A stretch of 64,000 bases of DNA from a virus: positions 1 to 64,000 of IMG/VR virus record IMGVR_UViG_3300032297_000372, one strand, 5' to 3'. How positions within the stretch are numbered: position 1 is the first letter of the stretch; the number at the start of each line of letters is the position of its first letter. A model generated the notes under the pieces. The model was given only the letters and a program-made list of their open reading frames with translations. It searched no databases and had not been told where the DNA came from. A program made the translations under genes and the position numbers. Below, piece after piece: positions 8,949-64,000 of the stretch.

Positions 8949-8956
8949 TATAAATA
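8949..8956 (+). promoter_or_regulatory. T4-type late promoter
   Basis: Exact TATAAATA, 9 nt before ATG 8966. Confidence 0.7.
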
Positions 8957-20999: not shown

Positions 21000-21586
21000 C
21001 TGGTTATGAAGCCTATTGTTTATACACTAGTTTAAAATTACATTTCACTCAAGAATCATACAACTATTTTAAGTACGGCGGGAAAACAAACGTATCGATT
21101 GAGTCTTTTGAAAATAGAAAAGACAAATATCATTACTATAAAATTTCCCGCCGGTATGAGAAGGATGAATATGTTAATTTTCTAGTTGCCAATTTTCTCA
21201 TTGATTCTAATGTTTGGATCGGCAAACTATTAGAAGATGAGGCACACCAAAACTATCTAAGTCGGCAAAAGATTCAACAGAGTTTGATGTATTCTTTTGA
21301 GAACGATTGCCGTAATCTATTTGAAGAGGTAAAGAACCCTAACGACCTATTGACAAATACTGATAACTATCCTATACTGTTAAGTAAGGTCTTTCGTAAA
21401 GAGACTAATATTGAGACTTTGATTATTCTATCAGATATATTAGGTTTCTTACCGATGTGGTGTAAGAAGATAAATGACACTATACAATGGCCAAACTTTT
21501 ACCATAAATTAACAAAATATAAACTATTTCTTAATTATGATAAGCCAAAATATCAACAGAAGTTGAAGTCTATTCTGGTAATATAA
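20996..21586 (+). CDS. gp59: Helicase loader gp59
   Basis: YCLYTSLKLHF...YNYFKYGGK...RKDKY; IETLIIL. Confidence 0.92.
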   Translation: MTGYEAYCLYTSLKLHFTQESYNYFKYGGKTNVSIESFENRKDKYHYYKISRRYEKDEYVNFLVANFLIDSNVWIGKLLEDEAHQNYLSRQKIQQSLMYSFENDCRNLFEEVKNPNDLLTNTDNYPILLSKVFRKETNIETLIILSDILGFLPMWCKKINDTIQWPNFYHKLTKYKLFLNYDKPKYQQKLKSILVI

Positions 21587-21589
21587 ATA
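21582..21589 (+). promoter_or_regulatory. T4-type late promoter
   Basis: Exact TATAAATA followed by AGGAGG and ATG 21608. Confidence 0.75.
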
Positions 21590-28080: not shown

Positions 28081-28088
28081 TATAAATA
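28081..28088 (+). promoter_or_regulatory. T4-type late promoter for the baseplate operon
   Basis: Exact TATAAATA upstream of 28113. Confidence 0.75.
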
Positions 28089-50820: not shown

Positions 50821-53800
50821 ATGACAAAACTTTTCAATTTTGACCCATATAACGATGATTTTGATGAAGATAAAAACTTCATGCGTCTATTGTTTAGACC
50901 GGGTTATGCATTACAAGCAAGAGAACTAACACAATTACAAACCATTTTATCGAGTCAGATTGAAAAGTTTGGTAACCATATCTTTCAGAACGGTAGTCCA
51001 ATTACTGGCGGTAAAATCTCTCTTGATGATAGAGCTAACTATGTTATTTTAGAAACTCAATATTCAGGTGCAGATATTTCTTTAGATTTGTTCCTGAACA
51101 CAACTGTTGTCAGTTATAACTCAACTAAAAATGTTCGTGCTAAAGTTATTGCTATTGATAATAATACCAATACAACACCTGTGATGATTGTTAAGTATTT
51201 GAGTGGTGATAGATTTGCTGAGACTGATGAGATAAAAGTTGTAGGTCAAAATTTATTTGCTCAAGTTAGAGCCAATGATGCTGTTGGTCGTTCTTACGTT
51301 GCCAGCATTCAAGAAGGTGTTTATTTCTTCAAAGGACAATTTGTCAAAGTTGTTCCAGAATTTCTAGTATTAGAACCATTCTATCGTGTAGGTAATAACT
51401 CTACTGTTATCAACAAACAACCATCATACAAAATTGGTATTGAATTCGATGAATTGGTTATCGATGAAGTTGATGATGCTTCTTTATTGGATCCTGCACA
51501 AGGATCATTTAACTATCAAGCACCAGGTGCTACTAGATTTAAAGTCGATACTCGTTTGTCTAAGAGAACATTAGATTCTGCTGACGAATCTTCATTCTTT
51601 GAAGTTATTCGTTTAGTTAACGGTGTAAAAACTAAAGAGATTGATTATCCAATTTACAGTGAATTGGAAAAGACATTGGCTCGCAGAACATTTGAAGAAT
51701 CTGGTAACTATACTGTTGATCCTTTTGTTCTTTCAATGCAAGAAGATTGGCAAGATCCAGCAAATAACAATGTTGTTAATGCTGATTATTTTTCTGCTAT
51801 TCTCGATCCAGGTAAAGCATATGTTGGTGGTTATGAATTTCAAACAATTGCACCAACAGTATTAGGTATTCCAAGAGCAAGAGCTACATCTAACGTTTCT
51901 GATTACGATGTGCCTACTTCATATGGTAGTTATGTTTTTGTTAAGAACGTTTCTAAAACATTAGATGTTACTTCTTTCCCACAATTAGATATACATTGCG
52001 TTTCAGCTGAAAAAATCGATACATCATCTACAGCAAAATATGATTCTACTAAAATAGGAACATTACGTGCTAACATGTTGAAATATGATGATGCAACATC
52101 TAGAGCTGATGGGCTAACTCATATTCACAGAATGCATGTGTTTCAAGTTAACACATCTTCAATCATAGGTACTACTGCGGCATCAGCATCTACAAATACT
52201 GTAGTTAAGTTGCCAACTTCATTTACTGCTAATGGTGGTATTAACGCATATGCAAATATGTACTTTAGAATCACTGATGGTGCTGGTCTTGCAGTTGCAC
52301 CTATTCTGATTGAATCTTCTAACAATGCTAATTTGACAATTACATTGCAATCTGCATTACCTTTTATTCCTGCATCAAATGCTTTCTCTATTGATGCTGA
52401 CTTTTATAGAGCAGAAGGTTTTTCGGTTAAGAGTGGTACATCATTAACATTCTCAGCAAACGTTGATAGTTCATCAAAAGATACAGATGGTTTCTCTTTA
52501 ATTACTGAAAAGAGTAGAGAGAATGCTGTATTTGATTTGCCATTTGAAGCTATCAAACAAGGCACTATTGATAATTTCGATTTCTATGCCACAAAATTAT
52601 ATTCAAATAAAGTTTCTAATTTAGGCGGAACAATTTCTTTCGCACCTAACGGTACAGATACTTTTGCTTTTGCTGGTTCAGCTGGTGTTTTAGGTCAAAC
52701 AACAATTTTGAATAACATTATTTGTTTTGTTCGACCAGAAACAAATGCGAACGTTCAATTTGGTATCTACCCAAATACAATTTTAAGTTTAGCAAATTCA
52801 AACTTCACCGTTACTGCTGTTGGTGATGGTTCGTTGACATTTGACATTAGAGTTCCTGCAACTTATGTTGATTTCTTAATTAAGACTAAAGTTAATAATG
52901 CAGAAGCTGGTGCAACTGGTGCTATTCGTTCTAAGACACTGCGACCATCATTAAGTGCTGCTGAAGATTTGCATGTTAAAGTTCCTTACAATTTAAAACC
53001 TGCTGGTACAGATTTAGAAAGATTAACATCATCAAATACAGGAACAGTAACAACATTTACTGGTGGTTATGTTTTTGAAACTGTTGGTGCTACATTCTTT
53101 GACACAACTAGTGCGATGGCAGATTTGAAAACACCAGGTAAAGCAGTAAGTTTACAAGTACCTGATATTTTCGAAATCGTTAGAATTACCGACTCACGTA
53201 CCAACACCACAAATGTTACAACTGCAATGTTGACGAGTGACGACCATGATGTCACATCACACTATGAATTTGATAATGGCCAAAGAAGAACACATTACGA
53301 TCACGCTACTATACGTCTAAAACGTGGTTATAGTTCGCCTATCGGATCAACTTTATTGGTGCAATACAAATACTACGCACATGGGTTATCACCACAAAAT
53401 AGTGGATTGTTTACTGTAGATTCTTATCCAGGTGATTATGCTGATATTCCATTATTTAATGACAAAGAGGGTAATCGATTAATTTCAGCACGAGGATTTT
53501 TAGACTTTAGACCTACGAGAGCTATTGCAGGAACAACAATTGCAAACGGTGTTAATGCTGATCCGGATGAAGTTGCGGAATTATCTTTTGAACATTATCT
53601 ATCACGTATCGATCAAATCGTTGTTAAACCTTCAAAAGAAATTGGTGTAATACAGGGGCAACCAGGTGTTAAGCCTGTACAACCTACCGTATCTGGTGAT
53701 GATATGTTGATATACACACTGTATATCCCACCATATACTGATGATGTAAAAGTAATTCGTGCAGATTTCAAAAATAACCGTAGATTCACCATGAGTGATA

Positions 53801-56800
53801 TCGGTGCGTTTGAAAATCGTATTAAAGGTTTAGAATATTATGTTGCTCTGAACGCACTTGAGAAAAATGCAAATGATTCAAAAGTTCTAGATGCCAATGG
53901 TTTAGAAAGATCGAAATATGGTATTCTAGTAGATAACTTTACTTCAACAGATGTACAAGCATCTTACAGTGATGTTAGTTTTGACAATCGTTGCTTAGTA
54001 GAAAACGGTGAGTTGAAACCAGCCTCATTAATGCGTACATTTAAATTAGATTTTGATGAAGATGCTTCTTCTGGTAATTATGCTGCTGTTGGTGTAGCCG
54101 ATAAGAAAACATTAATGTTGGCATATTCAACAACAGAAATGGTTAAACAACCTTACGCTACTAAAACTGTTCCTGTTGCTGGTGCCATTTATGGTAACTT
54201 TAACGGAAAGATGAAACTTTTCCCAGAATTTACCATGGAAAGTGACATCGATAAAACAGCAAGAGTTACATTGAATTCTGTTCAAGGATTAGAAAATGCA
54301 TTTAATTTCGTTAATGAGGCATTTCAATTTATAAGTGATGCAAATCCTACATGGGTAAATGATGCTAACAATCCTTTCGCAAAAGTTGTAGATTCTAAAT
54401 GGTTCGAAACAGTATCAACTGTTACTAATCAAACCGTAGGCCTTGGTGGTAATGTTTTTGGTAATCAACAAATTACTACAGACCGTGTTTACATTTCAAA
54501 AGGCGCCACACTAAGTCAAGAACAATTTGGTGTTTCAACCAGCGAAACTAAAATTGGCGATTTCGTTACTGATGTTTCTATCAACCCATATTTGAAGCCT
54601 AGAGCTATTACATTTATCTCTAATGCTCTTCGCCCATTCACAAGATTCTATTCATTCTTTGATGGTACAGCTGTAGATAACTTTATCGTTATTCCTAATA
54701 AAGTATATTTGGGTGCGAACACAGAATTCTCTGATGGTGAGGTAGCACTTTTAGCAAATAATACTGGTGAATTAGCTACTCAATTGAATAGTTGGTTGGC
54801 TGGTGGAACAGCTTTCAATTTAGTTCGTGTAGTTAATTCAATACCGGGAACAAATACAGTTTCAATTGTTAATGAAACTGGTTTAGCATTAACTGGTAAA
54901 TATCTAAAAGGATTGACATCACTAAAAGAAGGTTACATATCTACTTTAGTTGAACATAAGTCTGGTATAACACGAACCTTAACATCAAATACTATTACAT
55001 TAGCTTCAGATGCTCCTTCTGTTAATATTGCTGGTAACACAATATACTTCATACACGAAGCCTCAACTGAAGAGGGTAGAGGTTCTTCTTATACAATTAC
55101 AAACTATAATACAACAACTAAAGTTGCTAATATTTCAGGTACACTCAGTACCACAGATGCAGCTTCAAATAGTTGGATATATTCTATAGGTACAAACATA
55201 ACAAATAAACATGGAGATATTGCTGGTGTATTCTACCCACCAGCAGCAACATTCCGTACAGGCGAAAGAAAACTACGATTAACAGAATCATTCAACAACA
55301 CTTATGATTTAGATTCTATTTCATTTACTGAAAAGACTTTTGTATCTTCAGGTGTAACTGTTAACAAAACAACTTTAGTTGATACAGTTTACAATGTGGA
55401 TGTTGGTGTTAAAGTTGTAGGTACAGCTACTTCAGCAATCTTACAATCTACCGCTTCTGAAAGTAGAATTACAAGTACATGGCGAGTTGACCCATTAGCA
55501 CAAACTTTCTTTGTTGATCCTTCAGTATATCCAAATGGATTAACAATGTCTAGTGTTAATGTATTCTTTAGTTCTAAAGATGATGATTTGCCCGTATCAG
55601 TACAAATCCGACCTACAATTAATGGATTACCTTCTTCCGATTTCTGGTATCCTGAATCTGTTGTTGTTAAAAATCCTAATGATGTTACTATTACTTCAGC
55701 TCCTGATGCGGATGATTTAACAACATCAACTGAGTTTACTTTCCCTTCTCCTGTTTTCTTAAAACCAGGTCTGTACGCACTAGTTGTATTGTGTGATAGT
55801 CCTGATTACATAGTATGGACAGCAGAAAAAGGACAAACAACCACAGGCGGTCAGTACGTTTCAATTAATCCTTATGTTGGTACATTGTACAAATCTCAAA
55901 ACTCTATGGAATATGTTCCATATATTAATGAAGATTTGATGTTTGTTTTGAATAGATGTGTGTTTACAACAGATCCAGCAAACTTCGTATTAAGAACTCC
56001 AAACTTTGATAGAAAGTATAACATCGATAAGTTTAGATTGCTTGATCGAGGAATATCATTACTTTCAAATGAAGCTTTCTCTGCAAGTTATTCTTTCATT
56101 TCTAAACCTGTAGATGGTGTTAAAGAAACGGTATATAGAACTATTGAGCCAAGAGTAACTTACTATATGGGTGACGATACAAAATATGCTATTGGGTATA
56201 GAAGAAAAGAAGTTCAGAATTCTGGCGATTTCATGATTAAATATCAAATTTCTACCAATGATCCTGCCGTTTCACCGATGGTATCTTTAGAAGCTATGCA
56301 CTTAAATGCATGGGAAAACTTCATCGACAATGCTGAAATTAATGAAGAAGATTTTAATATCATATCACCAGGTTCTGGTTATGCAAATTCGAATACAGTT
56401 ACAATCTCATCAACTACAGGTTCGGGTGCTTTAGTTTATCTGAATGTTGATCCTAGTGGTAACGTTTTAAGTTTGAATGTTGCTGCAAGCGGTACAGGTT
56501 ATTTGGATGACTTTAGTATTTCAGTTCCAGTAACTGCTTCAAATGCTTCTATTGTATTGAATAGTGAATATGATAGTTCTGGCGGTCCATGTTTAGCAAG
56601 ATACATTACAAAACCAATTACTCTTGCTGATGGTTTTGATGCTGGCGATATAAGAATATTCTTATCAGCAAATAAACCGACTGGTACAGAAGTTACTGTT
56701 TTTGCTAAAATTCTATCTTCATCTGATAGCACTCCATTTAAAGATAGAGGTTATCAGAAATTAGAATGCTTCAATCCAACAAACTTTGCTACAACTAAAG

Positions 56801-56988
56801 AAAATGAATTTATAGAATATGAATTCAGACCTTCTTTGACAGAAGATAATATAACTTACACAGCCGATAACGGAATTATTTACGATAATTTTAAAACATT
56901 CTCAATTAAAATTGTCATGACTTCCCTCGATCCTTCAGTTATTCCGAGAGTCAAAGATTTAAGGATAATTGCTTTACCGGCAGGTTAA
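50821..56988 (+). CDS. Large virion structural protein (VrlC/DUF4815-like)
   Basis: PYNDDFD..KNF.R.LFRPG.A.QARELTQLQ, APGA.R, LARRT..ESG.Y, DPLAQTF, P.VKDLR.IAL. Confidence 0.85.
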   Translation: MTKLFNFDPYNDDFDEDKNFMRLLFRPGYALQARELTQLQTILSSQIEKFGNHIFQNGSPITGGKISLDDRANYVILETQYSGADISLDLFLNTTVVSYNSTKNVRAKVIAIDNNTNTTPVMIVKYLSGDRFAETDEIKVVGQNLFAQVRANDAVGRSYVASIQEGVYFFKGQFVKVVPEFLVLEPFYRVGNNSTVINKQPSYKIGIEFDELVIDEVDDASLLDPAQGSFNYQAPGATRFKVDTRLSKRTLDSADESSFFEVIRLVNGVKTKEIDYPIYSELEKTLARRTFEESGNYTVDPFVLSMQEDWQDPANNNVVNADYFSAILDPGKAYVGGYEFQTIAPTVLGIPRARATSNVSDYDVPTSYGSYVFVKNVSKTLDVTSFPQLDIHCVSAEKIDTSSTAKYDSTKIGTLRANMLKYDDATSRADGLTHIHRMHVFQVNTSSIIGTTAASASTNTVVKLPTSFTANGGINAYANMYFRITDGAGLAVAPILIESSNNANLTITLQSALPFIPASNAFSIDADFYRAEGFSVKSGTSLTFSANVDSSSKDTDGFSLITEKSRENAVFDLPFEAIKQGTIDNFDFYATKLYSNKVSNLGGTISFAPNGTDTFAFAGSAGVLGQTTILNNIICFVRPETNANVQFGIYPNTILSLANSNFTVTAVGDGSLTFDIRVPATYVDFLIKTKVNNAEAGATGAIRSKTLRPSLSAAEDLHVKVPYNLKPAGTDLERLTSSNTGTVTTFTGGYVFETVGATFFDTTSAMADLKTPGKAVSLQVPDIFEIVRITDSRTNTTNVTTAMLTSDDHDVTSHYEFDNGQRRTHYDHATIRLKRGYSSPIGSTLLVQYKYYAHGLSPQNSGLFTVDSYPGDYADIPLFNDKEGNRLISARGFLDFRPTRAIAGTTIANGVNADPDEVAELSFEHYLSRIDQIVVKPSKEIGVIQGQPGVKPVQPTVSGDDMLIYTLYIPPYTDDVKVIRADFKNNRRFTMSDIGAFENRIKGLEYYVALNALEKNANDSKVLDANGLERSKYGILVDNFTSTDVQASYSDVSFDNRCLVENGELKPASLMRTFKLDFDEDASSGNYAAVGVADKKTLMLAYSTTEMVKQPYATKTVPVAGAIYGNFNGKMKLFPEFTMESDIDKTARVTLNSVQGLENAFNFVNEAFQFISDANPTWVNDANNPFAKVVDSKWFETVSTVTNQTVGLGGNVFGNQQITTDRVYISKGATLSQEQFGVSTSETKIGDFVTDVSINPYLKPRAITFISNALRPFTRFYSFFDGTAVDNFIVIPNKVYLGANTEFSDGEVALLANNTGELATQLNSWLAGGTAFNLVRVVNSIPGTNTVSIVNETGLALTGKYLKGLTSLKEGYISTLVEHKSGITRTLTSNTITLASDAPSVNIAGNTIYFIHEASTEEGRGSSYTITNYNTTTKVANISGTLSTTDAASNSWIYSIGTNITNKHGDIAGVFYPPAATFRTGERKLRLTESFNNTYDLDSISFTEKTFVSSGVTVNKTTLVDTVYNVDVGVKVVGTATSAILQSTASESRITSTWRVDPLAQTFFVDPSVYPNGLTMSSVNVFFSSKDDDLPVSVQIRPTINGLPSSDFWYPESVVVKNPNDVTITSAPDADDLTTSTEFTFPSPVFLKPGLYALVVLCDSPDYIVWTAEKGQTTTGGQYVSINPYVGTLYKSQNSMEYVPYINEDLMFVLNRCVFTTDPANFVLRTPNFDRKYNIDKFRLLDRGISLLSNEAFSASYSFISKPVDGVKETVYRTIEPRVTYYMGDDTKYAIGYRRKEVQNSGDFMIKYQISTNDPAVSPMVSLEAMHLNAWENFIDNAEINEEDFNIISPGSGYANSNTVTISSTTGSGALVYLNVDPSGNVLSLNVAASGTGYLDDFSISVPVTASNASIVLNSEYDSSGGPCLARYITKPITLADGFDAGDIRIFLSANKPTGTEVTVFAKILSSSDSTPFKDRGYQKLECFNPTNFATTKENEFIEYEFRPSLTEDNITYTADNGIIYDNFKTFSIKIVMTSLDPSVIPRVKDLRIIALPAG

Positions 56989-57229: not shown

Positions 57230-60200
57230 ATGCCAATTTCACAAATCGAAAATATAACAAGAACTAATACCATTGATGAATGGAGAATACAGACTAATAA
57301 ATCTGCCTCTGATTTAAATGATCTTGGTTTTTCATCATATGATAAAACGCAAGGTACTTTGATTATATCAAATACTGCGTCATTACGAATTACTGCATCA
57401 GGAACTCCTTTTGAGGTTGTTAATAGTGTTCTCTTTCAGAATAATCTATCGTTAGCAAATAACTTTTATCTAGGTACTGTAGGCACTCCAACAGGTAATG
57501 CTATTATTGGTGGTACAGTAAGTATTGGTGGTTCAGGTGCAACTTCATTAAATGTCGCTAATGGTGTAACTGTTGGTACAGATTTAGCGGTAACTAGAAA
57601 TATTTCTGCATCAAACGCTGCTTTTAGTAATCACATAACAGTAGCAAACAACATAACAGCCTCAGGCATTCTTCGTTTACCTGGAACGGTTGCAGAAAAA
57701 GGAAATGTAATATATGCAAATTCTGGTTCAGCTTATATTAATACAGTTTTTGCATCAACAATTAATTCAGCAAACGTAGCTTCAGATAACGTAAGAGCAT
57801 TGCAAGCAACCTTTGACGTTCTGAACCTTATTGGTTTAGGCACAATGTTAAATTTGCAGGTTTTCAATGATGCGTTCTTAGTTGATATTATTGCTACAGG
57901 TAACAGTTATTTTGATGTTGCTAATGTTCGTTCATTAACAGTTAACTCTTCAGCAAACATAGTAACATTATCTTCGAATACTTCTACGATTAATAACGCA
58001 ATCTTAGGAAATGCCACTGTAACACGAGCTAACGTCACAAACATGACGGTAGACCAAACAGGTAATGTTGTAACTTTAATTTCGAATCTATCATTAATCA
58101 ATACTGCAAATATTTTAATAACAAATGCAAACGTTGGTAATATTCGTAACTTTAGTTTAGGTACTGGTAGTATTACAACAGCTGCAATAGAAAATCAAAC
58201 TTTCAATGTTGCCGTTGGTAACACAAGCACAATACAATCAGCAAACATTGTTACATTACAATCTAATCAAGCGACAATCAATACTGGTAATGTAACAAGA
58301 ATCTTTGCTTCTAATGCAAATGTAAGTACAGTAAACGTTTCCTCATTAGTAGATGTTACTACTGGTGGTTTAGTTAGAGTTGCTGCTGGTGCTTCTCCAG
58401 AAACAACTGTATTGCAAGTTGCAGGTAAAACTAACTTAGCTAACGTAGTTATTGACGGCAATTTAACTGTATCGGGTGCGTTCACACAAACCGGAACTGT
58501 AAACTTCCAGATTCAGTCTTTCTTATTGAATGCAAATACGGCTACAAATCTTGATGCTTCGATTATTAATAAGAGAGCTCTAGGTGATAATGCTATTATT
58601 AATTGGGACGAATCTGTAGATCAGTGGAAGATTTCTACAGGTAATACATACTCACAATTAAACAGAATACTCGATGCTGGTCAATTATCATCACAAGTAA
58701 CTAATACAAGTATTACTGATGTCGCAACTCCTGCTGCGGTTAACACAGTACATACGATTTCTATTACTGCAAGTCATTATGCCAATGCAGCATTCTTACA
58801 AGCAAATACTCCTAGTCACGTATCGAATAGTGCGTCTAGTTATGCTAACTCTGCATTCTTGCAAGCGAATACTCCGAGTCATGTATCTAACTCTGCGGCA
58901 CTCTATGCTAACGCAGCCTTTATAGTTGCAAACACACCAACTCATGTGGCAAATTCTGCTGCTTTATATGCTAATGCGGCATTTATCGTTGCGAATACAC
59001 CAAGTCATGTTGCCAATAGTGCAGGTTTCTATGCTAACGGTGCATTTGTAAAGGCTAATACCGCAGATATCAATGCTAATGCAGCTTCATCATACGCTAA
59101 TGCGGCATTCACTCAAGCTAACTCTGCATTCGTATCAGCAACTAACGCTCAACTTGCCGCAGATGCCGCACAAGGAACAGGTTCAGCATCTTACGTTTTA
59201 GCAAATACAACTACCAATACCGCTTTAGCAGGATTTGCAGTTGCCAACTCCGCAGCACTTTATGCTAATTCAGCTTTCTTGAGAGCTAATAATTCATTGT
59301 TAAGTTCTGGCGGAACAATGACTGGTGATTTAACCATGTCAGGTAGTAACTCGATCAATGCATCAAGAGCTAACATTGCTTTTGATTTATTAGGTGTTAG
59401 AACAGGTGCATCTGGTGCTAGAATTGTGATGAACTATGACATCATTCAATCTGCTGATCCATTGTTCAGAGCATCACTTGTTGTGGATAGAGGTGTAAGT
59501 CCTAACGTTGAGATTCGTTGGAATGAACCTACAGCAAAATGGCAGTTCACGAATGATGGTTCTACTTACACCGACTTTGGTGGTAGTACCGCACCTGCCG
59601 TTGCCGGAGGTACAAATAGACAGATTCTAGTACAGACTGGTGTAGGTGCAACAGGTTTCATTGATGCTCCTTCAACTGCTAATAGATACTTACAATGGAC
59701 AGGATCAGCATTTACTTGGGCTGAGGTACCTAGTGCAGACTTAACTGAACTGAGTGCAAGTAATCTAACATCTGGTACTATACCTGCGGCTAGAATGCCG
59801 GCAACTGGTTCTTTTGGATTTAATATTACAGGTAGCGCAGGTTCAGCATTGACTGCTGCAACAGCAACAACTGCTACAACAGCAGTCAATGCCACAAATG
59901 CAGTAAACATTTCTGGTGGTAATGTACAAAATGCTTTAGCCTTTACAGTGTTAGGTACTCCAAGTATCGGTGACGGAACATCAACATTCTATAATAGACT
60001 TTATATTAGAGATGGCGGCACAACAACAAGTAAAACTGATCCTTCAGATACAGCAGCATTAAAAGTTTTAGGTGATATAGCTGTCTCTACTGATGTTTGG
60101 GCAACTTTGTTTAATGGTACCGCAACATCAGCTCGATATGCTGACTTAGCAGAAAAATATTTACCTGATGCGGATTATCCTGAAGGTACTGTAATGGCCA

Positions 60201-60491: not shown

Positions 60492-60965
60492 ATGATAACT
60501 ATTGATGAGTTTGAGAATTTTATACAACATGATTTGGTATATGAACAAAAGTTAATTTCTATACTGGATGACCTAGGTCGACAAATTTATATTGATGATC
60601 TAGGTCAACTTCATTCCAACTACGGTAAAACCGTAAAAGTTGAGGGTATGGAAAAATATAATGCACAAATATATGACACATGTTGTGAATTGCAATACGT
60701 ATATAATCATAATGGTGTCGTGACTTGTCATGCTTTCAGAGCTTATGAAAATTCTGCAAGTTTTGGAACTCATACTGATCCTGATGATGTTTATATACAC
60801 GTTATTTGGGGAGAAAAAACTCTTCAAATAAAAGATGAAATTCACATATATCGTTCTGGTGAAAGTGTATTCATACCTTCTAATACCCCACACAAAGCTA
60901 TAAACGAAAAAGAATCTTTAATATTAAGCTTTGGTCTTGAAAAATTTCTAGTAGATAAATTATGA
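60492..60965 (+). CDS. JmjC/cupin (Cupin_4/ROXA-like) Fe(II)-2OG oxygenase
   Basis: SFGTHTDPDDVYIHVIWGEK (HxD) and GESVFIPSNTPHKA (distal His). Confidence 0.75.
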   Translation: MITIDEFENFIQHDLVYEQKLISILDDLGRQIYIDDLGQLHSNYGKTVKVEGMEKYNAQIYDTCCELQYVYNHNGVVTCHAFRAYENSASFGTHTDPDDVYIHVIWGEKTLQIKDEIHIYRSGESVFIPSNTPHKAINEKESLILSFGLEKFLVDKL

Positions 60966-62020
60966 ATTGGATGTTTTATTTAAAGACCACTGAAACATGT
61001 AATTTAAATTGTAAACATTGTTTCACTAATGGCATTAATGGTCCTAAAATTTTCTGGAATGCCATAAAGATTACTGATTGGATTAAACGTTTCAGAGCAT
61101 ATTACCCATCTAATTCTGATTCTATACATTGTGAATTTCACGGTGGTGAGCCGTTTTTAGTTCCTGTTCATGAAATGCGTCATGTGTGGGAAAATTGTAA
61201 AGACTTGTGGCCTGCCATGACTTGGGGAGCAACAACGAATTTAGTATTTAAGATGGATCAAGAACATTATGATTTTATAGAAGAAGCTTTCGATAATAGA
61301 ATAGGAACTTCTTGGGATCCTAAAATTAGATTTGCCAATAATAAACAATATAAACTTTGGCATAGTAATGTTAAAAGCCTATTGAATCGTGGCGTAACTG
61401 TAAAACTTTTTATAAGTGTAACACAAGATACATTAAATATAGAACCCATAGTATTGTTACGTTGGATTCGTAGGTTAGGTGTACAAGAAGTTTCGTTTGA
61501 GAGATTAACTCAGAATGGTAACGCTAAAAAATATCCTGAAATATTTCCTAACAATATTGAACAAGATAACTGGTTTCTAAAATTATACGAACAATCTGAG
61601 AAATATGGTGCCAGAGAATGGTTCGATAATGAATTTTTAGAAGTAATTTATTCAAAATTTGATACCGGATTCTTGAAAGGTGGAACTTTCTGTAGAGATT
61701 GTGAAGAAAAGATATTCACTGTAAATGCTGACGGTACATTATCAGGATGCCCAAATTCTGCTCCAGAATTTCAATTTGGACATATAAATGATAATCTGGA
61801 AGATGTTATAAATAGTGAAAGAAGAATAGAAAATATATCATGTGAACGTAGTAGAGATCCTAGATGTTTTTCATGTGATGTGTTTGAATATTGTGGTGGA
61901 GACTGTCATCAATTAGAATGGCAAAATGATGTTTGTGGAGCTCCAAAAAGTTTAATGAGATATTTAAAAAATAAACAAAAAAATAAAGTTTGGATATTAA
62001 AAAATGGCAACCTTAACTAA
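60962..62020 (+). CDS. Radical SAM protein with C-terminal SPASM domain
   Basis: CNLNCKHC, FHGGEP, C..C...GTLSGCP, CFSC....YCGGDC....C (CxxCx5Cx3C). Confidence 0.93.
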   Translation: MNWMFYLKTTETCNLNCKHCFTNGINGPKIFWNAIKITDWIKRFRAYYPSNSDSIHCEFHGGEPFLVPVHEMRHVWENCKDLWPAMTWGATTNLVFKMDQEHYDFIEEAFDNRIGTSWDPKIRFANNKQYKLWHSNVKSLLNRGVTVKLFISVTQDTLNIEPIVLLRWIRRLGVQEVSFERLTQNGNAKKYPEIFPNNIEQDNWFLKLYEQSEKYGAREWFDNEFLEVIYSKFDTGFLKGGTFCRDCEEKIFTVNADGTLSGCPNSAPEFQFGHINDNLEDVINSERRIENISCERSRDPRCFSCDVFEYCGGDCHQLEWQNDVCGAPKSLMRYLKNKQKNKVWILKNGNLN

Positions 62021-62549
62021 TAATATTAACCCTCAAAATATCGTTGATAGATTTGCTGATTATGTGACAGCCACAGCTAGTGCAGGAATTACATGGGGAA
62101 CTAATGCTAAACCCTTTAGTCAATTTGATGCGGGTTATCTTGGAGGAACAACCGCAGGTAGACCTATTGGTATATCAGGTGGAAATATTTCTGCTGTTGG
62201 TGGAACAATCACAGCTTCAGCAATTTACAACACTCTAGTTAATGAAACCGCACAATATACTTCTATTAGAAGTTTAAGAGCTATTCTACATTTAACCGGA
62301 TCAGGCAACCAGTTCGATCAAACAGCTATTGCTTATATGAGTTATGGATCGTATGGGCAGAGTATTGGTTCACCAGCAAATGCTGGCGTCTCAGCAGGAT
62401 CGACAATAACTAGTAGTGGTTTAGAATCGCTTTTTAATAATTTAAGATCATCGTATAATACTGCAAGAGCAGCCACAACTACGATAACTGTTACTGTTTG
62501 TCACACATCGTGTCATTCATCCTGCCACGGTTCTAGAGGAAGAAGATAA
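62004..62549 (+). CDS. Ser/Thr/Gly/Ala-rich virion-like protein with C-terminal (CHxS)3-RGRR motif; putative radical SAM substrate
   Basis: All three Cys lie in the terminal CHTSCHSSCHGSRGRR; overlaps the rSAM gene end. Confidence 0.75.
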   Translation: MATLTNNINPQNIVDRFADYVTATASAGITWGTNAKPFSQFDAGYLGGTTAGRPIGISGGNISAVGGTITASAIYNTLVNETAQYTSIRSLRAILHLTGSGNQFDQTAIAYMSYGSYGQSIGSPANAGVSAGSTITSSGLESLFNNLRSSYNTARAATTTITVTVCHTSCHSSCHGSRGRR

Positions 62550-63265
62550 TGAATATTGTTGAAACTACTGCACCCATCTCGATTGAAAATTTAAAAAAAT
62601 ATTTTAATGACCAGACTACTTTTTTTGTTATTGATTATAAAGACAGTAGTTTAAAAGGAACAAAACTATTAACATATCTTTCGAATTTAGATATACCTTC
62701 TGACATAAACTTTACAGGTTGTTCTAGTGATGAATGTTTTGATATGATTAAAGAATACCTACATTCTACAATGATTGTTAATATTCCTGCACTTGAGTCG
62801 GCAGTTATCAATATATTACATCAAACTAAAAATTTAGTTCCAGTAACAGATAAAAAATTTATTGACGATAATAAAGAAATTTTAGATAAGTGGATTTCAA
62901 AACTAGAAAGTTTATCCCTATTCAATATGCATATTATTGGAAACGGAATGTTCAAAGAATTTGTTTCTGAGTTTGAAGTCGATGCATCAACTGAATTGAT
63001 CGGTGTTAATTTTATTAGTTTATTAAAGAATGAACATTTTTATTCTTTCTATAATAATACCGATAAAAAATCATTAAAGTTTTATACACATTATTTTAAT
63101 GATTACATGTTCAAAGGTAAAAATATGTATTCATATTGGGCTAATGAGAATAATCCTTTATTTTTATTGACATACGGTATTTCAGAAGGCCTTGTAGAAG
63201 GAAATTCTTATAACTCATACAAACAAAAAACAATCGAGGAATTAGAAAATGTTACACCTGTTTAA
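62549..63265 (+). CDS. Hypothetical protein in the rSAM operon
   Basis: TAATG coupling; YKDS.LKG..LL.YLSNLD.P.D. Confidence 0.75.
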   Translation: MNIVETTAPISIENLKKYFNDQTTFFVIDYKDSSLKGTKLLTYLSNLDIPSDINFTGCSSDECFDMIKEYLHSTMIVNIPALESAVINILHQTKNLVPVTDKKFIDDNKEILDKWISKLESLSLFNMHIIGNGMFKEFVSEFEVDASTELIGVNFISLLKNEHFYSFYNNTDKKSLKFYTHYFNDYMFKGKNMYSYWANENNPLFLLTYGISEGLVEGNSYNSYKQKTIEELENVTPV

Positions 63266-64000
63266 TAAAGTTTACTTAGAGTTCGATGATAGAATAGAAA
63301 ATCATCTAGATCGAGTTGTTATTTCAGAACAATACGGAGATCAAATGTATGATCTTTTGGAAAAAGCTGTTCTTGGAAAATTAATACTATATGGTAAAAG
63401 TTTCGAAGAAGTTGTTGGTGACGACTTTTTAGGATTCATAAAATCAATAAAAGAATATGGTGATAACTCTGGTAAAAAAATCATTATTTTCTGTGATAGA
63501 ACTTCATACAAAAAATTTATGGCTCATTGGTTTAGATCAACATTACCTAATTTAGATTATGACGGATTTAAAACTATTGTAGATCATACGATTTATAATC
63601 AACGAATAATTTCGAATACCCAACTATCTTCAATGTTCAGTGTTAATCTAAATTCACTATGGGAAGATTTGGATGATATCGAATCTGCGTGGGCAAACGC
63701 ACAATCTGTAAATAGAACCTCGTTGAAATCTTTGAATTTAAATCATACATATGAATTTTTATTATCAACTTATTTGTCTGGTGATAATTCACATAAAGAA
63801 GCCTTGAAAAAAACATTGCACATGTTTTTACGCCGTTGGTTTATAGAAATGTTTGTTGACAATCGACAAATGGTTTTATTGAATCTTAATAACCATAAAT
63901 TCTTAAGCACATTTAATATTGATCCTAAATTGATAGATTTAACTCGTTTAGATCCTTTAGATGTAATAGAACAATTTGAATCTTACTCCGATGATGAAAT
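63249..64000 (+). CDS. Hypothetical protein in the rSAM operon (3'-truncated; not in ORF track)
   Basis: GAGG RBS; MLHLFNKVYLEFDD... frame appears open to the window end; overlaps the upstream gene. Confidence 0.75.
   Translation, partial: MLHLFNKVYLEFDDRIENHLDRVVISEQYGDQMYDLLEKAVLGKLILYGKSFEEVVGDDFLGFIKSIKEYGDNSGKKIIIFCDRTSYKKFMAHWFRSTLPNLDYDGFKTIVDHTIYNQRIISNTQLSSMFSVNLNSLWEDLDDIESAWANAQSVNRTSLKSLNLNHTYEFLLSTYLSGDNSHKEALKKTLHMFLRRWFIEMFVDNRQMVLLNLNNHKFLSTFNIDPKLIDLTRLDPLDVIEQFESYSDDE

Follow-up and report, generated by a model that had tools for sequence, protein, structure and literature searches.

Linkage of radical SAM-SPASM genes to a Cys-His-tailed protein in marine T4-like and jumbo phages

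Introduction

What do the radical S-adenosylmethionine (rSAM) enzymes encoded beside the tail genes of large phages act on? We took up this question for a window formed by the first 64 kb of the 91.6-kb IMG/VR viral contig IMGVR_UViG_3300032297_000372 (estimated completeness ~52%), whose source phage is a T4-like marine myovirus. At the 3' end of the window, a tail fibre gene is followed by genes for a cupin/JmjC-like Fe(II) oxygenase, for an rSAM enzyme that has a complete SPASM domain (rSAM1) and for a 181-residue protein, here called the CHxS protein, which ends in VCHTSCHSSCHGSRGRR directly before its stop codon. We favour, on balance, the reading that the CHxS protein is a virion protein whose C-terminal tail is matured by rSAM chemistry in the manner of a ribosomally synthesised and post-translationally modified peptide (RiPP).

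These genes are annotated in genome papers as radical SAM, Fe-S oxidoreductase, cupin or 2-oxoglutarate (2OG) oxygenase genes (PMC7029224, PMC5332604, PMC8066314, PMC11898562, PMC2853527). In pelagimyophages, radical SAM cassettes have been reported behind VrlC, as part of the host recognition cluster, and the genome papers on marine T4-like and jumbo phages treat the cassette genes as auxiliary metabolic or unknown. No paper found in the searchable full-text literature names the CHxS protein as the likely enzyme target, nor its tail, its promoter or its presence in virions. The module described below is real and strongly conserved, and it is apparently undescribed.

Results

The tail motif is invariant across divergent phages

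The last 16 residues of the CHxS protein comprise three tandem Cys-His-x-Ser units and a terminal RGRR. Specifically, C166, H167, C170, H171, C174, H175, R178, R180 and R181 are invariant, also in the jumbo-phage orthologues, whose bodies diverge to 27–33% identity while the tail stays invariant. All 123 close members of the family end in (C-H-x-x)3-R-x-R-R, and the motif (CHxx)3RxRR stands at the extreme C-terminus in 136 of the 150 best divergent representatives (at most 50% mutual identity), with Ser, less often Asn, at position 4 of the units in 109–127 of the 136. The three units differ in codon use, so the motif is not a DNA repeat, and the CxxxCxxxCxxx stretch occurs only once over all frames of the 91.6-kb contig. 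Judged from these alignments, conservation of the motif is far beyond chance. The family itself is large: clustering at 90% identity gives 655 clusters, and clustering at 50% gives 591.

Departures from the motif are rare. Some variants carry one Gly inserted before RxRR, and a 193-residue member (P0268) ends in C-Y-S-D-C-Y-V-N-P-C-Y-R-S-R-G-R-R, with Tyr for all three His and with Cys and RxRR retained. The protein Atlas search for the CHxS protein yielded viral 'hypothetical' clusters and one weak lead only: the tail has three tandem CXXX units, and PF27846, the CXXX-repeat rSAM target family of Pfam 38.1, is carried by 19% of the members of a half-viral Atlas cluster (feature score 0.81). 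A c-type haem attachment motif (CX3CH) was considered and dropped, since there is no haem lyase and since Ser/Asn and RxRR are conserved equally.

The CHxS gene is strictly linked to rSAM1

To place the motif in its genomic context, module proteins were mapped on 80 related viral loci, and counts take the loci with enough flank. The rSAM1 gene lies upstream of the CHxS gene in 75/75 loci and abuts it in 74, the gene for a 238-residue protein (p238) abuts it downstream in 75/75, and a second rSAM gene (rSAM2) follows in 68/68. The cupin gene was found upstream of rSAM1 by tblastn in 58 of 74 loci; in L042, where tblastn missed it, a divergent Cupin_2 open reading frame (ORF) occupies the cupin position.

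Among cultured phages, the module is present in 15 records only, namely the Ralstonia/Burkholderia RSL2-like relatives of phiKZ, Agrobacterium phage Atu_ph07 with Sinorhizobium phage Phosso, and Pseudomonas phage DT01. Atu_ph07/Phosso, RSL2/RSF1 and DT01 represent unrelated jumbo-phage lineages, and they share the order of cupin, rSAM and CHxS protein followed by a p238 homologue and more rSAMs. Neither blastn of the region nor tblastn of the CHxS protein found a match in cultured phages; the orthologues were reached via rSAM1 and p238. Cultured cyanophages and pelagiphages do not carry the module. Among 185,579 prokaryote species, each represented by one genome, we found 11 loci, all on contigs of metagenome-assembled genomes (MAGs), most of which carry the rSAM set, and there was no sign of a cellular version. 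The co-occurrence of CHxS tails with rSAM-SPASM enzymes, proposed in a first-pass annotation of the window, thus holds in every viral locus counted, in four cultured phage lineages and on most of the MAG contigs. CHxS proteins commonly lacking an rSAM neighbour, the pattern which that annotation set against its own proposal, were not what we saw, the linkage being strict.

Several loci show altered organisation. At L096:5887-6722, two tandem short CHxS paralogues of 137 and 140 residues stand directly after a 1960-residue ORF, and the first of them ends in PCHTSCHSSCHTSRGRR; L098, the second contig of the same bin, has another CHxS copy together with cupin, rSAM1 and rSAM3. Contigs binned into Bdellovibrionaceae/Bacteriovoracia MAGs (L091, L093, L094, L095, L099) carry the module with altered gene order, including an extra rSAM1-like paralogue after the CHxS gene and, in some, inverted blocks. 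These contigs, 77–110 kb long, may stem from phages that infect predatory bacteria or may be phage contigs that were binned wrongly. RSL2 has a dihydrofolate reductase gene immediately after the last rSAM shown (L003, 12042-12578), and in RSF1 a GIY-YIG nuclease gene is inserted immediately 5' of the cupin gene (L087, 3498-4415); these flanking genes suggest that the module borders are recombination-prone.

A late promoter motif precedes the CHxS gene

The T4-type late promoter consensus TATAAATA lies within the 3' part of rSAM1, 190 nucleotides (nt) before the CHxS gene. It is rare in the window, where 4 copies stand against 11.9 expected (8949-8956, 21582-21589, 28081-28088 and the one before the CHxS gene), all on the + strand and none on the - strand. 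This scarcity fits a T4-type late promoter that would be avoided elsewhere. Across the related loci, a copy is found at most 400 nt upstream of the CHxS start in 68/74. The offsets vary between loci, and several differing offsets mean that the motif is not one conserved codon string. Additionally, 77 of the ~110 copies in all loci fall within a single 250-nt bin before the CHxS gene, a ~35-fold enrichment over the rest of the loci. These counts fit a putative late promoter that would raise the CHxS protein above the level of the upstream enzymes.

An orthologue is present in purified virions

Virion data are available in the published Atu_ph07 virion proteome (PMC6102473 Supplementary Table S5), in which gp170 corresponds to the CHxS orthologue P0001 by its equal mass of 31.89 kDa. 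Gp170 was detected in purified virions with 8 unique peptides and 35% coverage, in gel bands 1–9 with its maximum in band 1, the top slice (PMC6102473). It is the sole well-supported protein below 40 kDa that peaks in the top slice; other 30–35 kDa proteins peak in bands 7–8 or lower. The neighbouring gp168, gp169, gp171 and gp172, which are rSAM, cupin and p238 homologues, are not in the virion list (PMC6102473).

Structure prediction of the CHxS protein

The CHxS protein belongs to no Pfam or NCBIfam family (NCBIfam at E <= 0.1). An AlphaFold model built on a 50-sequence alignment gave a compact α/β body (pLDDT, the predicted local distance difference test score, 87; predicted template modelling score (pTM) 0.81), with residues 167-181 at low confidence, and the C-terminal tail is predicted to be flexible. 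Fold searches of the body against the PDB returned no relative (Foldseek best E 0.26; VIA-align wide best Z 3.8). In BFVD, the body found its own homologues and three larger uncharacterised myovirus proteins. The latter, A0A8S5USJ7, A0A8S5USJ8 and A0A8S5USV2 of Myoviridae sp. ctijX18 (504–660 residues), match the body fold with a template modelling score normalised by query of 0.51–0.54 and a Foldseek probability of 0.99–1.0, and the fold may thus also form a domain of larger phage proteins. A natural fusion in the representative library (P0167, 453 residues) joins a Gly_rich_2 domain (PF21722, 7e-11) to a CHxS body with the canonical tail.

These results divide what had been said of the protein. 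It had been described as fibre-like or phage-structural-looking, and this description does not agree with a compact α/β domain whose fold is unmatched in the PDB; that the candidate substrate is not a short peptide agrees well with its modelling as a folded protein. As to its being a virion structural protein, the virion part is supported by the Atu_ph07 orthologue, and the fibre-like part is not.

rSAM1 is a SPASM enzyme outside the curated maturase families

rSAM1 combines the CX3CX2C motif CNLNCKHC (residues 13-20) with the complete seven-Cys SPASM pattern CX9-15GX4C ... CX2CX5CX3C ... C (C247-x10-G-x4-C263; C302xxC305x5C311x3C315; C325). C13, C17 and C20, the SPASM cysteines and C244 are all invariant across 47 homologues. 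The enzyme passes the TIGR04085 (SPASM) model with 36.1 bits (cut-off 27), stays below the Pfam Radical_SAM cut-off (21.5 against 29.5 bits) and matches phrog_1802 at 1.1e-66. The top named NCBIfam families are PapB (9.5e-14), DynA (1e-11) and anaerobic sulfatase maturase (anSME; 1.7e-10), all far below their cut-offs, and the weak matches include YhhB, FxsB and AmcB. Specifically, rSAM1 scored 51.4 bits over a full-length alignment against the PapB-type ranthipeptide maturase NF047865 (cut-off 340), 40.5 bits against anSME TIGR03942 (cut-off 349), 27.6 bits against HxsB TIGR03978 (cut-off 370) and, over its first 66 residues, 23.7 bits against the CXXX-repeat maturase TIGR04115 (cut-off 350), and is a member of none of them. 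Its paralogue rSAM3 scored 31.2 bits against HxsC TIGR03977 (cut-off 267.9) and is likewise not a member; no curated family fits rSAM2-4. The earlier comparison with the Hxs system consequently does not extend to membership, as rSAM1 and rSAM3 lie far below the HxsB and HxsC cut-offs and the system stands outside the Hxs family.

The family profile of rSAM1 matches PDB entries 8VPO, anSME and CteB; a phmmer search with the single sequence against PDB sequences gave no match, a profile being needed. The first-pass annotation had asked whether the enzyme groups with small-molecule or DNA enzymes, and its best family and structure matches are without exception maturases of peptides or proteins (PapB, DynA, anSME, CteB). 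A DNA-modification role was rejected as the leading explanation on the SPASM domain, these best matches and the strictly coupled gene for the Cys-His tail protein. rSAM1 has no RiPP recognition element (RRE), and there is no N-terminal room for one because the CX3CX2C motif already starts at residue 13. Atu_ph07 and DT01 have a separate orthologue for each of the four enzymes rSAM1-4 (57–62% identity for rSAM3), and the four-enzyme set is therefore ancient and coherent. PADLOC returned only generic viperin-like rSAM N-terminal matches for the module, and a known defence or anti-defence family was rejected on this ground. A predicted complex of rSAM1, the CHxS protein, three 4Fe-4S clusters and S-adenosylmethionine scored 0.17 against a mark of 0.32 and was weighed neither way.

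The cupin/JmjC-like protein, p238 and p364

The 157-residue oxygenase matches Pfam Cupin_2 at 6.3e-10 and JmjC_2 (PF08007) at 1.8e-6 (27.9 bits, cut-off 22), the latter over just 41 of the 127 profile positions. Residues K49, H80, H94, D96 and H134, which include the HxD...H triad of H94, D96 and H134, are invariant in 28 homologues, jumbo phages included. Its profile reaches the histidyl hydroxylase MINA53 at 2.9e-5, and generic cupins score better. On this sequence evidence, the protein is a candidate hydroxylase of the CHxS tail.

p238 matches phrog_20767 at 8.8e-70, and orthologues with 28–32% identity occur in all 15 cultured-phage records that carry rSAM1. Its model (pLDDT 84) has no PDB relative (Foldseek best E 0.36; VIA best Z 5.0 over a 55-residue β-α-β piece), and the protein Atlas search gave no result. 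It may serve as an adaptor or chaperone. The product of the next gene, p364, has no Pfam, PHROG or NCBIfam match; it is present in 73/73 marine loci and not detectable in Atu_ph07, RSL2 or DT01, which points to conservation in the marine lineage only. An HxsA-type target or HxsD partner was looked for in NCBIfam at E <= 0.1, and neither the CHxS protein, p238 nor p364 gave a match.

Gene order of the module

The ORF list confirms that five genes, those for the cupin, rSAM1, the CHxS protein, p238 and p364, follow the tail fibre gene as a coupled run, successive genes overlapping by 4, 17, 1 and 17 nt (Table 1). That no terminator is evident also stands: a scan found one weak hairpin within the 181-residue gene and none convincing between genes. 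Past base 64000, the module continues with three more rSAM paralogues and three 2OG oxygenases. The whole contig has exactly four Radical_SAM genes, every one of them inside this module. It contains no Fe-S A-type carrier gene, and there is no peptidase, transporter or ligase among the module genes.

The module lies between tail-fibre genes: VrlC and the tail fibre gene lie upstream, and a gene for an LtfC-like tail fibre assembly protein lies downstream. The VrlC homologue (2055 residues, 50821-56988) has its best cultured match in Pelagibacter phage HTVC008M (34% identity). The C-terminal 130 residues of the tail fibre protein match phrog_19602 (tail fiber protein, 7.4e-7) and phrog_22593; in locus L042, the gene at the tail-fibre position has a Peptidase_G2 intramolecular-chaperone domain. 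Within the tail fibre gene, positions 58700-59250 hold ~6 tandem copies of a ~20-residue unit (S-A-x-Y-A-N-A-A-F-x-x-A-N-T-P-S-H-V-x-N), and this segment is also the G+C peak of the window (0.398). The coiled-coil ORF between VrlC and the tail fibre gene has weak prefoldin or DUF16-like matches.

Table 1 Features of the module and its flanks, in contig coordinates
Feature	Position	Strand	Remarks
Coiled-coil ORF, 83 residues	56969-57220		Between VrlC and tail fibre gene
Tail fibre gene, 1086 residues	57230-60490	+	Directly 5' of the five-gene run
Cupin/JmjC-like Fe(II) oxygenase, 157 residues	60492-60965	+	ORF list
rSAM1, radical SAM with full SPASM, 352 residues	60962-62020	+	ORF list
TATAAATA, T4-type late promoter consensus	61807-61814	+	Within 3' part of rSAM1
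CHxS protein, 181 residues	62004-62549	+	ORF list; stop follows VCHTSCHSSCHGSRGRR
C-terminal core CHTS-CHSS-CHGS-RGRR, residues 166-181	62499-62546	+	
p238, 238 residues	62549-63265	+	ORF list
p364	63249-64343	+	Open at window end 64000; 364 residues on full contig
rSAM2	64345-65397		3' of p364 on contig
Unknown protein			Between rSAM2 and first downstream 2OG oxygenase
2OG oxygenase	65872-66330		After rSAM2
rSAM3	66331-67356		
2OG oxygenase	67331-67849		After rSAM3
rSAM4	67830-68759		
p138, 138 residues			After rSAM4; phrog_20737
2OG oxygenase	69134-69709		After p138
LtfC-like tail fibre assembly protein	69751-70083		
2121-residue protein			3' of LtfC-like protein on contig

Discussion

Proposed maturation of the tail

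We infer from the linkage, the motif and the virion orthologue that a conserved phage cassette, of which the window holds the first half, would mature a structural protein. The CHxS protein would be produced late, from its own T4-type late promoter, and its flexible 16-residue tail, (Cys-His-x-Ser/Asn)3-Arg-x-Arg-Arg, would probably be modified in the infected cell by the adjacent rSAM1 and most likely also by the three rSAM paralogues. The modified protein would then be incorporated into the virion, in its tail or baseplate region, and the enzymes would stay out.

Regarding the chemistry, two readings of the unit C-H-x-S/N offer themselves by analogy: C-x-x-acceptor for a thioether, or aromatic-x-X3 for a three-residue cyclophane. 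The radical cross-links to be expected are Cys-to-carbon thioethers in each C-x-x-S/N unit and/or His-to-Cβ cyclophanes in each H-x-S unit. The invariant Cys favours sulfur chemistry, and the His-to-Tyr variant favours a role of the ring. As a rough ranking, we would put thioethers first, at somewhat less than an even chance, some other chemistry next, and cyclophanes last of the three. The cupin/JmjC-like and 2OG oxygenases probably hydroxylate His, Arg or another residue. Because the module has no protease, this is protein maturation and not a RiPP system in the strict sense; the conserved 165-residue body and the orthologue in virions agree with this.

Several points weigh against such a maturation. 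The CHxS body has no recognisable structural-protein fold by PDB searches, and the virion evidence concerns a 27%-identical orthologue, not the phage of the window. The Atu_ph07 gel loading buffer, as described, does not list a reducing agent (PMC6102473), and in a non-reducing buffer disulfides of the three Cys could explain the high-mass gp170 species. rSAM1 lacks an RRE and stands outside the curated maturase families, so that its substrate class would be read from context. Eight enzymes are many for a 16-residue tail, and some may act on other residues or proteins. Finally, the divergent loci L092 and L096 carry a CHxS gene with no rSAM inside a short flank.

What a matured tail would do is a further step. 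That it serves as a receptor-binding or metal-binding tip, as was suggested at first, is speculation. A more elaborate version, which we hold to be unlikely, is that myoviruses of several unrelated lineages use four rSAM/SPASM enzymes and four Fe(II) oxygenases to turn the tail of a protein associated with the baseplate or tail fibre into a non-proteinogenic, covalently cross-linked 'warhead', either a tightly metal-chelating, siderophore-like tip that engages the receptor or an intermolecular staple that locks tail assembly. The position of the Atu_ph07 orthologue at the top of the sodium dodecyl sulfate (SDS) gel would follow from an intermolecular covalent staple.

Alternative explanations

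Among the rival explanations, an unmodified metal site survives best, although we consider it distinctly unlikely. The tail would here bind Zn, Fe, Cu or an Fe-S cluster as it stands, and the enzymes would act on other tail proteins, on a receptor analogue (sugar or lipid) or on a nucleotide. Metals are classically bound by Cys and His, which at an i/i+4 spacing would share one side of a helix; the prediction for the tail alone is a flexible one, and none of the rSAMs falls into a curated family. T4 fibres are known to contain metal ions, and His-x-His iron binding at the tip of the T4 long tail fibre offers a parallel. However, a metal site would hardly explain why rSAM1, CHxS and p238 genes abut and are translationally coupled in this order across otherwise dissimilar phages, nor would it need the Ser/Asn at position 4 or the terminal RxRR, which are conserved like Cys and His. 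Moreover, the Tyr-for-His variant P0268 retains an aromatic ring, which is not a typical ligand of soft metals.

The CHxS protein could also be a carrier scaffold, whose C-terminal residues are made into a released small molecule (a cofactor, chelator or toxin) as in the PQQ (pyrroloquinoline quinone), mycofactocin and pearlin-type pathways, its association with Atu_ph07 virions being incidental. Peptide-made, Cys-derived chelators are known, the core lies at the extreme C-terminus like that of mycofactocin precursors, and 8 redox enzymes are an unusually heavy load for 16 residues. We nevertheless judge this highly unlikely: the module lacks the peptidase, transporter and ligase genes noted above, the body is a well-conserved 165-residue fold and not a leader, the late promoter and the robust 8-peptide virion signal in Atu_ph07 speak for a virion protein, and the module is always found among tail genes.

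Lastly, a role in counter-defence or host takeover instead of a structural one, in which for instance a basic, matured, HxS-like tail would act in the periplasm at DNA entry and mirror or antagonise HXS defence, is scarcely credible: HxsA, an rSAM-matured HxS-repeat protein, does affect the entry of phage DNA and depends on basic residues (PMC13128918), the CHxS tail has three H-x-S units and the invariant RxRR, and a virion-borne protein could be delivered at infection, but the HxsB and HxsC scores are far too low, HxsD and HxsA families and a peptidoglycan-binding domain are missing, PADLOC gave the generic matches only, and the marine phage hosts are not known to carry HXS.

Relation to known rSAM-SPASM systems

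If the CHxS tail is matured as proposed, the system would work like known rSAM-SPASM systems and, by the family scores, would be a member of none of their curated families. One close likeness is CrpC of Methanococcus voltae, which installs thioethers in C-x-x-Q/D units of CrpA (PMC13692751). In both cases, a two-cluster SPASM rSAM stands beside a whole protein (CrpA ~29 kDa) with C-terminal C-x-x-acceptor repeats, and the modified protein is not cut out. Unlike rSAM1, which has neither RRE nor family, CrpC has an RRE and is a member of TIGR04463; CrpA has ten 17-residue C-x-x-Q/D repeats, whereas the CHxS tail has three 4-residue units, an invariant His and the terminal RxRR. The phage virion context and the set of four rSAM paralogues and four oxygenases are further differences.

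In the HXS system, HxsA carries His-Xaa-Ser repeats, is matured by HxsB, HxsC and HxsD, and serves a bacterial defence as the effector that blocks entry of phage DNA (PMC13128918). The two systems are alike in that a folded protein carries H-x-S units flanked by basic residues, in having several rSAMs in the operon and a small accessory protein of unknown fold, and in a link to phage infection. In contrast to HxsA, the CHxS protein repeats with a 4-residue period that includes an invariant Cys and has no signal peptide or peptidoglycan-binding domain, and the genes of the CHxS system belong to the phage and not to its host.

PapB/freyrasin and CteB (PDB 5WGG) are the closest NCBIfam and PDB-profile relatives of rSAM1 and act on repeated Cys-x3-acceptor motifs; their substrates, however, are short exported leader-core peptides, and rSAM1 has no RRE. 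The triceptide maturases XyeB, FxsB and YhhB resemble the system in that H-x-S/N fits aromatic-x-X3, with Y-x-D/N/S in its place in one natural variant; triceptide motifs, however, do not include an invariant Cys in front of every aromatic residue, and the scores are far below the cut-offs. QhpD and anSME are further rSAM-SPASM enzymes that act on whole proteins. QhpD/QhpC and anSME with its sulfatases are alike in that an rSAM-SPASM enzyme modifies Cys of a protein subunit that is kept in the final assembly, and, by comparison with anSME, the eight conserved Cys in the SPASM region of rSAM1 would allow full ligation of both auxiliary clusters. The CHxS tail differs in lacking the sulfatase motif C/S-x-P/A-x-R (no Pro or Ala at +2 of the last unit C-H-[G/S/N]-S-R among the 136 representatives), and the anSME scores are far below the cut-offs.

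Significance

Phage structural proteins are usually viewed as unmodified save for proteolysis, occasional glycosylation and autocatalytic isopeptide bonds, and the enzymatic maturation of a phage structural protein proposed here is apparently previously undescribed. The cultured phages Atu_ph07, RSL2/RSF1 and DT01 carry the module, which makes the question directly testable. RiPP enzymology would gain an RRE-less maturase family with a short, clean and invariant core, and, if the warhead or the staple were true, no earlier radical cross-link put in place by an enzyme would be known from a virus particle. The cassette is spread over marine T4-like phages, with hundreds of sequence clusters, and over soil and plant-pathogen jumbo phages. 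If the proposal is true, it accounts for the 'radical SAM cassettes' long noted in jumbo phages and, in pelagimyophages, in the regions for host recognition, and a cassette that matures a virion protein adds a new level to how phages assemble and recognise their hosts.

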